Part shown: piece after piece, positions 21,001 through 24,000 of the stretch
Position numbering within the stretch: the first letter of the stretch is position 1
How the letters are laid out: the number at the start of each line of letters is the position of its first letter
Source: an uncultured delta proteobacterium
GTDB lineage: Bacteria > Desulfobacterota > WTBG01
Length of the DNA: 64,000 nucleotides
NCBI GenBank assembly: GCA_963793865.1
Contig: CAWCBP010000014.1
Location: 128,001-192,000, forward strand
Reading direction: 5' to 3'
Program-made: the position numbers

Positions 21001-24000
21001 ACTTGCGGTTGAGACCGCGGCGCTTTTCGAGCGCTTAAACGGTCACGCCTACTGGCGGGACGCAAAATGTATCATCGTGGCCATGGGCGGTGTTCCCACC
21101 CGGGCAAACCGGCGGTTTGTCCGGCTGCTGTCCGATTCCTGCAGGCTGCCGGTCTATGTTTTCACCGATGGTGACCCCTATGGTTACGGCAATATTTACC
21201 GCACCATGAAGGTGGGCTCCGGCAATGCGGCTCACATCAATGAGTTCTTCTGCGTGCCCCGGGCAAAGCTGATCGGTGTCACGCCCCAGGACATCGTGGA
21301 TTACAACCTGCCTACCCATCCCCTGGAAGACAAGGATAAGAAGCGCGCCCAGGATGCGATCAAAAATGATCCCTTCTTCAAGAACAACAAACAGTGGGTG
21401 CAGGCATTGCAGGAAATGGTCAAGATGGGCGTGCGCGTCGAGCAGCAGGCATTTGCCGCGCGCGGGCTCAATTACGTCATGGAGACCTACCTTCCCGAGA
21501 AGCTGGGCAATCCCTCCAAGATGCTTCCATAGGCCTTACTCGAATTCGAGACATGATATTAGAAAAAATTCTGCAGCACTGCAACCCTGGTAGGGACTTA
21601 GGCTAACATTTTTATCTTGACATCAACTCAGTTTTTGGTAAATTAAATCTACACTTCAAAGATGAGTTTACTTTGAAGTGCCTATAATTGAATATAATGC
21701 TAATGGGTCTAGAAACTTTCGTTTCTAGAGGTTAAAGCTGTCGATAGTCGGGCCGCTATCTGAAAATTCAGAGGGCGTCCCTTTTCTTTTGTCCGGAGAG
21801 CGAGAATAAAGGAGGAAATTACGAGTTAATCGCAAATTGTAATAATACATTTTATTAATAATTGAATAGAGTTTCACGGGTCTAGAAGCAATTGTTTCTA
21901 GAGGTTAAATGCTGTTGATAGCCGGGCCGCTATCTGAAAATTCAGAGGGCGTCCCTTTTCTTTTGTCCGGACGGGCACAGTGCAGGAGGAAGTAACGGGT
22001 TAATCATAAATTGCGTTGATAAAATTGAAGAGAGTTTCAACGGGTCCAGAAACGGTTGTTTCTGGAGGTTAAATTCTGTTGATAGCCGGGCCGCTATCTG
22101 AAAATTCAGAGGGCGTCCCTTTTCTTTTTTCAGGAGTCAGATTCTGGGGACTTTATTAAGGTGTGTACCTCATGCATCAATTAATTATGAGGAGGAACAA
22201 GGATGAAATCTTTTAAAGAAGTGATCTTAGGTCTTGTAATAGGTGGTGGTTTTATTTTGATCCTCGCTGGTATCGAAGCCTTCAATCTGGGGAACAAGTG
22301 GTATCCTGCATATTTCATAACTGGTGCTATCATTGCGGTGGGATTCCTTAAACTCTCAACAAAAGTTATCAAATAGTAACAAGTAGCGAACATCAAACAT
22401 TCATTATTTGAAAGGAGAAACAAAGATGAAGATTTTAAAAGATTGGATGTTAGGTATTTGCATTGGTGGTGGCATTGTATTGATTTTATTGGGTCTGCAA
22501 GCTGTAACCAGGGGAAATAAGTGGTGGCCTGCATATTTTATAGCCGGTGCTATCATTGCCGCAGGATTCATTAAAGTCGCGATCAATGATTATTTAAAGG
22601 AGAAAATAGGAGCACGATAGATTTTATCGTTGTTTGCCTATTTGCGGTTCTGTGTGGTATAATATCTCTTCAGCTCTTTACTGAAAGGGCTGTGGGGAGG
22701 CTTTGCCGTCTTGTCAGGAAGGTGACTTATGTGTGCGAGGAAACGGGGGTGCGTGCAGCACTACAATCGTCAGCCGGGAAGAATGATTTTATATTTAATG
22801 ATGGCAGTCATTCTCGTGGTTATTTTTCAGAGCCCGGCAGGCGCCGGGGAAGGGGAGGTATATGACCCCGCGGTGATCGAGGCCTTCTACAGCAAAATCA
22901 TTCGCAATCCTATAGAGATTGATGGCGATCCATACAGGGTTCTGCAGGATGAAGACCTGATTGAGTACCCGGAAGAAGCAGTCTGCGCCATTCAATATGA
23001 AGATGACCGCATTCACTATGAAATTGCTACCTTCGATGACGAGGCCGCCGCTCAAGACAGCGGCTATATAGTGACGCACAAGGGGCATTGCGGTACCTGT
23101 TCCACCCTGCAGGATCTTGCCACCTATCTCTACCACCGGGATCTGACCACGCCGGTGAGGAGGTGCTCCGCGCTGGTGTGGTTCCCCGCCTGGAGCATGC
23201 ATTGCCTGGAGGAGCTGGGGTTCAGTTCGGAATGTGCGGAAACCTGGTATTACAACGCGAAGAATACGGCGCGCGAGTGCCTGTGGCCCTGCCTGGAATC
23301 CTGGATGCATAAAGAGCCCTTTAACAAGCCTGATGGCAGCCTGAACGACTGCCTTGCCTGCGATGAAGAGTGTTCAGGCCCGATTTTCAAGTATGTTGCC
23401 GGCCGCACGCGGCGGAACTCGGGCATCCGCTCTGAAATCGACAGGCCGGAGGACGAGGTGTATCCCATTGTGCATGATTATTATTGATACTCCGCATTGG
23501 TAAGAGGAAAGTACTACCGTAAGGGCTGTGCTCTTTGCAAGCGCGGCCCTTGTTTTATTCTCGCAGGCTGACTTCCCGGGTGTTATCCCCGCGGAAGCGG
23601 GGATCCAGGTCAAATCCAAATGCAGGGGCGACCGGCCGGTCGCCCCTACGCATCAGACACTATTTTCGTGTTAAATACCCATGCCCCCTGGGGGTACCAC
23701 GAAAATTGAAAATGCAATTCTATAGACGGGTCATTCTGCAGCATGACCGCAGAATCCAGGATTGTATTTTTGCTATTGACACTAAGCTTTGCTTCATTTT
23801 ATAGTACCGCGCCACACAGCACGTGCTTATACTATATCGATCTATTGAGAAGGAAAAGTTACCTGAGCGGGATAAGGAAGGAGAAAAAATGGATGCGCCT
23901 ACTCAAAACCATGAACTGAAGAAATGGGTCGAGGAGATGGCACGCATGTGCAGGCCGGACACGGTCTACTGGTGCGACGGCTCGGAGGAGGAGGCGGAGC

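Follow-up and report, generated by a model that had tools for sequence, protein, structure and literature searches.

Tandem arrangements of riboswitches are known, as in the TPP and glycine systems. Small membrane proteins that modulate transporters are known as well, with KdpF, AcrZ, MgtS/MgtR and CydX as bacterial cases and FXYD as a eukaryotic one; such modulators have 30-70 aa and one or two helices, and are induced by the stress that their partner transporter handles. For the nhaA-I riboswitch class, the account of White et al. (2022; PMC9646797) describes Li+-I units in tandem from an environmental sample and one triple array ahead of nhaD, as well as terminator-coupled variants (Na+-II) restricted to Deltaproteobacteria and located ahead of genes of unknown function. 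The variant tested in that work is triggered by Na+ with a KD in the low-mM range, its specificity is set by C54, and the C54U mutant of this Na+ RNA responds to Li+, Na+ and NH4+ (PMC9646797). As for the regulated genes, Table I of the supplement has the entry '[Hypothetical] Various unknown 171', given there without gene-level detail (PMC9646797).

The locus considered here, from an uncultured delta proteobacterium, carries three nhaA-I units ahead of two genes, A and B, for very small membrane proteins. The window, that is the whole stretch of DNA that was analysed, is 64,000 nt long; positions count from its first nucleotide, and the riboswitch units with their terminators, the promoter-like site 5' of them, the mini-genes and the mini-gene remnant lie on the + strand. 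Using the RF03057 covariance model (gathering score 37 bits), nhaA-I matches are found at 21705-21761 (48.0 bits), 21878-21935 (42.6 bits) and 22042-22099 (44.7 bits). All three span model positions 1-55 of 55 (E 5e-7 to 1e-5). They follow one another head to tail within 21705-22099, the starts of successive aptamers being separated by 173 and 164 nt, and the whole 3.85-Mb genome gave no nhaA-I match beyond these three. This bears out the genome-wide survey's note, which had reported three full-length units, each with its U-run. About 60 nt 5' of aptamer 1, a TG-extended promoter-like site (TTGACA-16-TAAATT, 21617-21644) agrees with the consensus at 10 of 12 positions, this being a consensus match only. 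A comparable TTGACA..TATACT pair stands immediately 5' of the first unit in the sister genome G006. When contigs of three sequencing runs were compared with the stretch, one of 258 nt, from a library labelled RNA-Seq, matched 22068-22325 and so spans the junction of unit 3 and gene A; it is indistinguishable from DNA.

In each of the three units, the aptamer is followed by a hairpin with a U-run, and this hairpin overlaps the 3' half of P2. Terminator 1 (21750-21790) has the P2 3' half of its aptamer (GGGCCGCUAUCU) as 5' arm and continues into UUUUCUUUU; terminators 2 (21924-21964) and 3 (22088-22130), each a hairpin with a U-run, overlap aptamers 2 and 3, respectively. Since the P2 3' half (GGGCCGCUAUC) doubles as the 5' arm of the terminator, the folded aptamer and the terminator rule each other out, which makes an ON switch. 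Compared across 21 units from relatives, 4 of the 15 pairs predicted show compensatory changes (for example UA/CG 17:4 and AU/GC 13:6); the covariation support for the P1 and P2 stems is modest because the 21 sequences are closely related. Judged by their sequence, the three units are complete, terminator-coupled, ON-type nhaA-I switches like the Na+-II riboswitches of White et al. (2022), with which they have in common the aptamer consensus, the P2-overlapping terminator and the ON mode (PMC9646797). A deltaproteobacterial host and 'hypothetical' downstream genes are found in both cases, and units 2 and 3 share the C of Na+-II (PMC9646797). Unlike in Na+-II, three complete units stand in series here; moreover, U takes the place of that C in unit 1 and in every unit of two sister species. 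In contrast to the triple array ahead of nhaD, the array described here regulates mini-protein genes, and the number of units (one to three) varies among close strains, as does the gene content.

The position that determines ion specificity (54 in the D. propionicus construct, in the closing pair of P2) was placed by comparing this construct with the Rfam consensus. It is occupied by U in unit 1 (GAUAGUCGGG) and by C in unit 2 (GAUAGCCGGG) and unit 3. This U is the base of Li+-I and of the broadened C54U mutant; the C of unit 2 is the base of the Na+-selective D. propionicus RNA, and the P1 stem of unit 3 is identical to P1 of the published construct. If the array behaves like the RNA tested from Desulfobulbus propionicus, its ligand is most likely Na+. 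Another reading would have the array sense Li+, or several monovalent cations unit by unit in the manner of a logic gate, the mini-proteins then serving lithium detoxification. RF03057 is mainly a Li+ class, the Li+-I-typical U of unit 1 beside the C of units 2 and 3 would suit such a gate, and the C54U mutant indeed answers to more than one cation (PMC9646797). We nevertheless consider this reading unlikely. The Na+-II group is matched in its terminator platform, in its taxon and in the unknown function of the genes downstream. In addition, the series of specificity bases reads C,C,C in G005, U,U,U in G007 and U,U in G006, and this interchange of C and U between close species, in otherwise near-identical units, argues against a fixed division of labour among the units.

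What would be gained from three switches in series was approached with a simple model of independent units. Here, as in the known tandem and triple arrangements, every aptamer is coupled to a terminator of its own, so that independent and multiplicative action of the units is to be expected. With illustrative parameters, three units lower the leak about 44-fold (from 0.15 to 0.003) and, with the same parameters, the dynamic range grows from 5x with one unit to 152x with three, whereas the apparent Hill coefficient rises just from 1.0 to 1.18. In this model, then, the stacking of three switches chiefly reduces leakage, and the response becomes only a little steeper. The earlier description of the switching as 'almost digital' appears overstated in view of this modelled coefficient.

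Mini-gene A (22203-22376, 57 aa) is preceded by the Shine-Dalgarno motif AGGAGG at 22190-22195 and mini-gene B (22426-22620, 64 aa) by AAGGAG at 22412-22417, both motifs being read from the sequence. Both products are predicted two-helix membrane hairpins, A belonging to a short subtype (C-terminus ...KLSTKVIK) and B to a long one (C-terminus ...KVAINDYxK...). They share 60% identity across 52 residues (BLASTP, E 3e-22). Over 12 orthologue pairs of the mini-genes, dN/dS is 0.09-0.37, with 0.09-0.37 for A (3 orthologues) and 0.19-0.34 for B. The AlphaFold2 model of B is a helical hairpin with helices at residues 2-28 and 34-63 (pLDDT 73). These data indicate that A and B are real genes under purifying selection, encoding conserved membrane proteins with two predicted helices, and the tandem paralogous mini-ORFs of 57 and 64 aa put forward by the survey are upheld. 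Searches of Pfam and NCBIfam assigned neither protein to a family; the best scores were 13.8 bits (CyanoTRADDas_TM, DUF6320) and 15.6 bits (SLATT_1), the curated cut-offs of these near-matches (24-41 bits) all being far above. The hairpin model of B found no match in the PDB at E<=0.001 using Foldseek, and in the ESM Atlas the top score was 0.87, for unnamed clusters and under the lead level. A complex prediction of A with B, run without controls, scored 0.02 against a mark of 0.32 and counts neither way. Further downstream, at 22614-22691, lies a probable remnant of a third, single-helix mini-gene. In G005, G006 and G007, as well as in the metagenome loci L065, L066 and L068, this third gene encodes a 52-aa one-helix protein and begins at an overlapping ATGA. 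The corresponding start in the window is ACG, and the tail is unlike that of the sisters, which suggests that the gene is dead in this genome.

The mini-protein family is narrow, with 7 clusters among 1.84 billion representatives, and it is confined to two genera of the class; it cannot, therefore, be a general solution to Na+ stress. Within these limits, its association with nhaA-I is regular. As the survey's note had stated, all three other genomes of the genus have the A/B pair behind tandem nhaA-I units, namely 3, 3 (one of them at 36.0 bits, just below the cut-off) and 2, so that nhaA-I lies upstream of the mini-genes in 4/4 genomes of the genus. The same holds for 7 of 9 metagenome loci; in the remaining two, fewer than 125 nt are available upstream of the mini-genes, and one of these two loci begins within an aptamer core. 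A distant homologue (E 3.2e-5, hhalign probability 94%) is found directly 3' of an nhaA-I unit in G031, from another family of the same class; among the 401 genomes sampled from the phylum, it is the sole credible one. Strains with B and without A exist (L067, L068 and L069), which makes an obligate A/B hetero-oligomer unlikely. Some other candidates were set aside. Six-frame matches in G050, G145, G153, G292, G367 and G423 (E 0.0017-0.004) are short and partial, and lie within long ORFs or contain stops. In another family of the phylum, nhaA-I is likewise followed by two-helix mini-ORFs (L079, L084 and L085); these are unrelated by profile (probability 0.2%) and represent analogues at most.

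At the level of the class, 11 of the 17 terminator-coupled nhaA-I loci precede a tiny membrane ORF, defined by a length of 30-70 aa, a Shine-Dalgarno site, a hydrophobic stretch and a position at most 700 nt downstream of the unit; three control regions gave 0/17, 1/17 and 1/17. Transporter genes are also found behind nhaA-I loci of the class, for NhaA (L026), CitMHS_2 (L033) and a P-type ATPase (L035). Mini-ORFs of the class, related to A and B in kind but non-homologous, would share a transcription unit with NhaA, the CitMHS_2 transporter and the P-type ATPase. Arrays are common as well, with three units in G011 and two in tandem in G012, G013, G016, G027, G039 and G040.

With the balance of probability slightly in favour, A and B may be viewed as cation-induced small membrane proteins taking part in Na+ homeostasis. 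A rise of the cytoplasmic monovalent cation would stabilise each aptamer, and RNA polymerase would reach A and B only after reading through the three terminators in turn. With such a series, the OFF state would be very tight, the threshold higher and the dynamic range multiplied. Lys and Arg residues number 2 and 3-4 at the two termini of the mini-proteins versus 1-2 in the loop; following the positive-inside rule, A and B would insert with both termini in the cytoplasm. Glycine/alanine-rich helix faces might then pack them into a small oligomer, which in the sister species would probably include the third, one-helix mini-protein, and this oligomer would act in the membrane, in Na+ homeostasis. 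As to how it acts, we tentatively prefer a reading in which it assists or regulates a larger cation transporter as one of its subunits, because known small bacterial membrane proteins act in this way and because mini-ORFs of the class are co-transcribed with transporters. A and B resemble KdpF, AcrZ, MgtS/MgtR, CydX and FXYD in size and helix count, with no sequence relation. However, in none of the four genomes of the genus does a transporter gene adjoin the A/B cassette, and its flanks differ between them. The idea of an accessory subunit thus rests on analogy and on non-homologous mini-ORFs found elsewhere.

The tightness of the OFF state could also be seen in another light, if A and B were toxin-like peptides that perturb the membrane and, when ions are in excess, slow growth or depolarise the cell, and if the triple terminator served to keep a harmful product fully off. 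The main effect of three serial terminators in the illustrative model is indeed a cut in leak, the products are small and hydrophobic, and the neighbours of the cassette differ by genome, with an integrase gene about 0.5 kb downstream in G005. Yet strong ribosome-binding sites precede the genes, no antisense or antitoxin partner was seen, and strains with one or two units exist. The same riboswitch type precedes ordinary transporters elsewhere in the class, and the two paralogues are retained as a pair under purifying selection. Toxicity of this kind is therefore improbable.

The most far-reaching reading makes the mini-proteins an ion-conducting pore or exporter and, in its boldest form, a CrcB-independent fluoride or Na+ channel. 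It stems from a third paralogue, copy C, in the only fluoride-riboswitch operon of the genome. There, a fluoride riboswitch (55.1 bits, contig C8, 499100-499162) heads a series of Na_H_Exchanger, Usp, mini-ORF and enolase; copy C (C8:500879-501052) has 56% identity (E 1.4e-12) and begins with ATG after AAAGAGCAGCAAAG. The survey's note was right about this paralogue and about the gene order. Regarding the enolase 'pair' (g02637/8), the position holds, but the two represent a single enolase gene broken by a frameshift; a break is also present in the genome's other enolase copy, so that assembly indels are likely. The reported lack of CrcB and CLC is likewise borne out. The search for CRCB gave no match over the cut-off in this genome (best E 0.1, with internal stops) while 11/14 control genomes were positive, and that for Voltage_CLC no match at E<=1, with 13/14 controls positive. 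Glycine-rich helices pack tightly in oligomers, as in the glycine zipper, and the helices of the mini-proteins would fit such an assembly. Fluc/CrcB channels, too, are small proteins of the membrane that occur in fluoride-riboswitch operons, in some cases as the products of two paralogous genes in tandem. A fluoride exporter is present in more than 85% of the bacteria covered by a survey (PMC11139923), and its absence here invites a substitute.

Nevertheless, Fluc/CrcB chains have four helices and a dual topology, whereas A and B are two-helix proteins predicted to insert in one and the same orientation, and the operon link of the mini-family is seen in one genome only. Copy C derives from gene B: it comprises this gene and 18 nt of the leader (72% nt identity) and is inserted, in the present genome alone, between Usp and enolase. 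The same fluoride-riboswitch/exchanger/Usp operon, with no mini-ORF in it, is present in three further genomes devoid of CrcB and CLC (G018, G027 and G029). Conversely, the three sister species have A/B and no fluoride riboswitch was found in them, nor in any of the 9 metagenome loci of the mini-family; with a C-type query over metagenomes, 0/308 pattern matches were confirmed. CrcB is absent from 26/42 genomes of the class, whereas the mini-family occurs in two genera. The mini-proteins do not match CRCB (none at E<=1 for A and B, none at E<=0.01 for copy C). Finally, their helices have no conserved polar or charged residue, E25 of A being Q in B and G in G006 and G007, and direct support for a small channel is lacking. 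A pore of this kind is very improbable, and the role of CrcB substitute is not supported. From the ion-stress effector that had been imagined, control of real mini-proteins by a Na+-type riboswitch stands and the fluoride role does not. Copy C would be co-expressed with the Na+/H+ exchanger, which would move Na+ while correcting the fluoride-induced acidification; it fits the Na+ theme and would not itself be a fluoride exporter.

Lastly, that the small ORFs are nonfunctional and the array controls the 252-aa gene downstream (22729-23487) is hardly credible: no terminator was found between B and this gene, but the dN/dS of the mini-ORFs is well under 1, the gene was not found beside the cassette in the G005, G006 and G007 loci examined, and it has its own promoter-like site at 22634-22663.

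Although the nhaA-I RNA class was already known, the mini-protein family is previously undescribed. The genes behind Na+-II riboswitches, left 'hypothetical' by White et al., are in this class largely genes for mini membrane proteins. Extending the Na+ homeostasis reading beyond A and B, it is possible, if still speculative, that the mini-proteins of the Na+-II regulon of the class, A and B included, are new Na+-stress effectors, acting either as small subunits that switch cation transporters or pumps, as bacterial equivalents of FXYD or KdpF, or as a minimal cation-handling complex of their own, with multi-unit arrays setting a sharp intracellular Na+ threshold. The tempting claim of a new fluoride exporter is removed and, in its place, a recurrent fluoride-riboswitch/CPA-exchanger/Usp module is brought out in genomes with neither of the two known fluoride exporters. 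Arrays of one, two and three units, occurring naturally in near-identical contexts, offer a gauge of what the stacking of complete switches does. With 57 and 64 aa, A and B would be concrete and very small candidates for cytoplasmic Na+ handling in anaerobes.

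Three complete nhaA-I units (Rfam RF03057) stand head to tail in the window, at 21705-21761 (unit 1, 48.0 bits), 21878-21935 (unit 2, 42.6 bits) and 22042-22099 (unit 3, 44.7 bits). All are full-length and above the gathering score of 37 bits, and the 3.85-Mb genome has no further nhaA-I match. When the units are folded with their 3' flanks, the segment GGGCCGCUAUCU (3' half of P2 and its loop) pairs in 3/3 units with a downstream segment, giving at each a long hairpin followed by UUUUCUUUU; a pattern scan finds all three hairpins terminator-like. Since the 3' half of P2 is common to the aptamer and the terminator hairpin, the two structures should be mutually exclusive, and the layout predicted from folding is that of a transcriptional ON switch. 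Compensatory changes are seen in the P1 helix (UA/CG 17:4 and AU/GC 13:6 among 21 units). A pattern scan also locates a promoter-like site, TTGACA-16-TAAATT, at 21617-21644, and a comparable site lies immediately 5' of unit 1 in a sister genome of the same genus. The RF03057 matches and the terminator overlap at all three units bear out the genome-wide survey's note as to both the triple arrangement and the type of riboswitch.

The available parts of White et al. (2022; PMC9646797) describe terminator-coupled nhaA-I variants as rare, confined to Deltaproteobacteria and placed 5' of genes of unknown function, and name them 'Na+-II riboswitches'. The sole variant assayed there, from Desulfobulbus propionicus, is activated by Na+, with a KD in the low-mM range, and only weakly by Li+. 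The Na+ preference is set by a C at 'position 54', which is U in most nhaA-I RNAs, and the C54U mutant responds to Li+, Na+ and NH4+ (PMC9646797). Comparison of the published construct with the Rfam consensus identifies position 54 as the 5' base of the P2 closing pair, U-G or C-G. In the window, this base is U in unit 1 and C in units 2 and 3; the three sister genomes have C,C,C (G005), U,U,U (G007) and U,U (G006), and C and U are mixed among metagenome relatives. With U in unit 1 and both bases among relatives, the window array thus appears, from its sequence, to carry the C54 feature of the Na+-II subclass only in part.

It had been proposed that the triple riboswitch switches almost digitally. 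In a model of independent units in series, where read-through is set for illustration at 0.15 (unbound) and 0.80 (bound), basal read-through falls from 0.15 for one unit to 0.0034 for three, the dynamic range widens from 5-fold to 152-fold and the midpoint (EC50) moves from 1 to about 3. The apparent Hill coefficient rises just from 1.0 to 1.18, which does not favor digital behavior; under this model, the array would be a leak-proof switch with a higher threshold rather than a digital one. White et al. (PMC9646797) mention tandem units as well as one triple array that precedes nhaD in environmental sequence, and the architecture is therefore rare rather than new.

Behind the array stand mini-gene A (22203-22376; 57 aa; ribosome-binding site AGGAGG) and mini-gene B (22426-22620; 64 aa; ribosome-binding site AAGGAG), whose products share 60% identity over 52 residues. 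All three of the genus's other genomes have orthologues of both. In pairwise comparisons, A gives a dN/dS of 0.09-0.37 and B one of 0.19-0.34 (dS reaches about 2); as these ratios are well below 1, A and B are protein-coding and constrained, and the proposed mini-protein family is real. Neither belongs to a Pfam or NCBIfam family, the top matches (13.8-15.6 bits) being far under the cut-offs, and the available parts of the literature on Na+-II and nhaA-I lithium riboswitches yielded no description of such mini-proteins. An AlphaFold2 model of B, obtained from a 12-row alignment, shows two helices, residues 2-28 and 34-63, with a loop of five residues between them (mean pLDDT 73). Lys/Arg residues number 2 and 3-4 at the ends and 1-2 in the loop; from those at the ends, the positive-inside rule predicts that both termini are cytoplasmic. 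Gly, Ala, Pro and aromatic residues make up most of the conserved positions (G10, G14, G16, G23, A26, P35, Y37, A45, G47). Helix 1 of A has a single acidic residue, E25, which is replaced by Q in B and by G in two of the sister species. The family's conserved residues suggest no ion-binding site in the membrane, and the idea of a small channel is thus left with no direct evidence.

The A/B family is very narrow. In a word-indexed search over 5.8 billion clusters, 19 proteins passed E ≤ 0.01, this genome itself supplying three of them, and 7 passed E ≤ 0.001 when 1.84 billion representatives were scanned in full with HMMER; in the GTDB species set, only contigs of two same-genus genomes were found. 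By six-frame search, the family is present in 4/4 genomes of the genus and in 0/7 genomes from the other six genera in its taxonomic family, which is the whole order. Among 401 phylum genomes sampled, the sole credible match outside the genus is a 66-aa ORF (E 3.2e-5) in G031, a genome from another family of the same class; profile comparison with the mini-family puts the probability at 94%, the aligned 53 columns being 34% identical. This homologue sits between two nhaA-I units, directly behind the first one, and is an independent instance of the riboswitch/mini-protein link. Moreover, nhaA-I units lie upstream in 7 of the 9 metagenome loci with the mini-family, and the two remaining loci have <125 nt of upstream sequence, one beginning within an aptamer core; a fluoride riboswitch occurs in 0/9. 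The connection of the mini-family with nhaA-I thus stands.

The cassette, that is the array with its mini-genes, has one unit in loci L061 and L068, two in L063, L066, L069 and G006, and three in this genome, G005, G007 and L064. L069, 94-96% identical to the window, is without 21972-22388, corresponding to unit 3 and gene A, and in L067 and L068 B comes directly after the single visible unit. A third gene, encoding a 52-53 aa product with one helix and a basic tail, overlaps the B stop (ATGA) in the three sister genomes and several metagenome loci (L016 1038-1199, L017 4408-4566, L010 1907-2065 and L066 1016-1177 are examples of its position). At its remnant site in the window (22614-22691), the start position reads ACG and the tail is different, so that the gene appears lost. 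In another family of the class, similar one-helix ORFs (...WASRQ...) stand behind nhaA-I units (L031, L032, L034, L036).

The cassette behaves as a self-contained module. Topoisomerase VI subunit A precedes it in the window and five metagenome loci, and in the loci analyzed for the three sister genomes no topoisomerase VI gene was found, nor any of the genes downstream of it in the window. Directly 5' of the cassette, the window (18649-21532) encodes both topoisomerase VI subunits, B and A (Topo-VIb_trans, TOP6A Toprim), in a bacterium. Downstream, a gene at 22729-23487, to which a promoter-like site at 22634-22663 belongs, encodes a Cys-rich protein of 252 aa that has a hydrophobic segment near its N-terminus and no family in Pfam or NCBIfam; it is kept in L067 and L069 and was not found beside the cassette in the sister-genome loci. 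Flanks differ among the genomes of the genus, G005 having a phage-integrase-family gene about 0.5 kb downstream (L016 1743-2540), and G007 has a fourth nhaA-I unit (C21:27138-27195, 41.1 bits) elsewhere on the contig that bears the array.

A third copy, C (C8:500879-501052), lies in the fluoride-riboswitch operon (C8:499100-501900; L006 4101-7406), where the genome's single fluoride riboswitch (55.1 bits) precedes a CPA-type Na_H_Exchanger, Usp, C and enolase. From this, the survey's note proposed, as its boldest reading, that the family is an ion-stress effector handling Na+ and/or F- and a candidate CrcB substitute; its report of a genome with no CrcB and no CLC holds, since no match to CRCB exceeds the cut-off and Voltage_CLC finds nothing at E ≤ 1. 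C shares 72% nucleotide identity with gene B plus 18 nt of the B leader, and no riboswitch was copied along with it; it is, to judge from the alignment, a local duplicate that has landed between the Usp and enolase genes. CrcB and CLC are also absent from G018, G027 and G029, in which a like fluoride-riboswitch/exchanger/Usp operon contains a mini-ORF in 0/3 cases. The three sister species, all with A and B, have no fluoride riboswitch and no CrcB, and CrcB is missing from 26 of the 42 class genomes, the mini-family being present in two class genera. These four results argue against C as a fluoride exporter, and the role of CrcB substitute is not supported.

According to a review of fluoride resistance (PMC11139923), Na+/H+ antiporters rank second in frequency among genes under fluoride riboswitches, and enolase is frequent as well; the operon is therefore ordinary except for C. 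Speculatively, as the exchanger would push H+ out and admit Na+, a Na+-stress protein could be useful beside it. The riboswitch is followed by the ~380-aa CPA-type exchanger and Usp in four class genomes without a CrcB or CLC match (this genome; G018, L104; G027, L103; G029, L102), with enolase after the pair in this genome and in G018, there directly after Usp (72-nt spacer). It is thus the exchanger/Usp pair, not the mini-ORF, that recurs as the candidate for responding to fluoride where no known exporter is present. Both enolase genes of this genome are frameshift-split (C8:501546-502381 and C14:19040-19902), which suggests likely assembly indel errors rather than pseudogenes, and its other 'split' genes need care. 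A dynamin-family GTPase lies downstream in the region here (L006 8155-9861) and in G029 (L102, oriented 2951-4601), and directly behind a fluoride riboswitch in G040 (L100).

Across the class, nhaA-I units occur in 17 of 42 genomes, often in tandem, with three in a row in G011 and two in G012, G013, G016, G027, G039 and G040; in G031, the mini-gene separates the two. A mini-ORF of 30-70 aa with a Shine-Dalgarno-like motif, a hydrophobic stretch and a start within 700 nt is found downstream of the unit at 11/17 loci outside the genus, as against 0/17 on the opposite strand and 1/17 in each of two upstream controls. These mini-ORFs are mostly one-helix, with Lys/Glu-rich tails, and often two or three are consecutive. 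At three loci a transporter gene comes after them, encoding NhaA (PF06965) at one, a CitMHS_2 transporter at another and a P-type cation ATPase at the third. In a thinner phylum sample, genes behind nhaA-I are more varied and include non-homologous two-helix mini-ORFs. Class units also precede a second family (L028 1611-2105, L036 814-1290, L040 2299-2691, L051 2267-2536), a soluble domain of ~100 aa that carries the motif CGVTE..F...KG..G.EIGRI.R and in some cases a helix at the N-terminus; no Pfam family covers it, and its similarity to bacterial PH domains is weak and sub-threshold (E 0.015-0.017). A conserved ~402-aa protein follows single units in two distant genomes (G038, L025 1651-2856; G162, L076); it has no Pfam family, its only match, a mannosylglycerate-synthase GT domain, scoring at chance level (E 0.18), and a role in osmolyte synthesis would be a guess.

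For the organism, A and B are most likely a cation-induced, probably Na+-induced, pair of small membrane proteins in Na+ homeostasis, and by analogy they may be accessory to a transporter.
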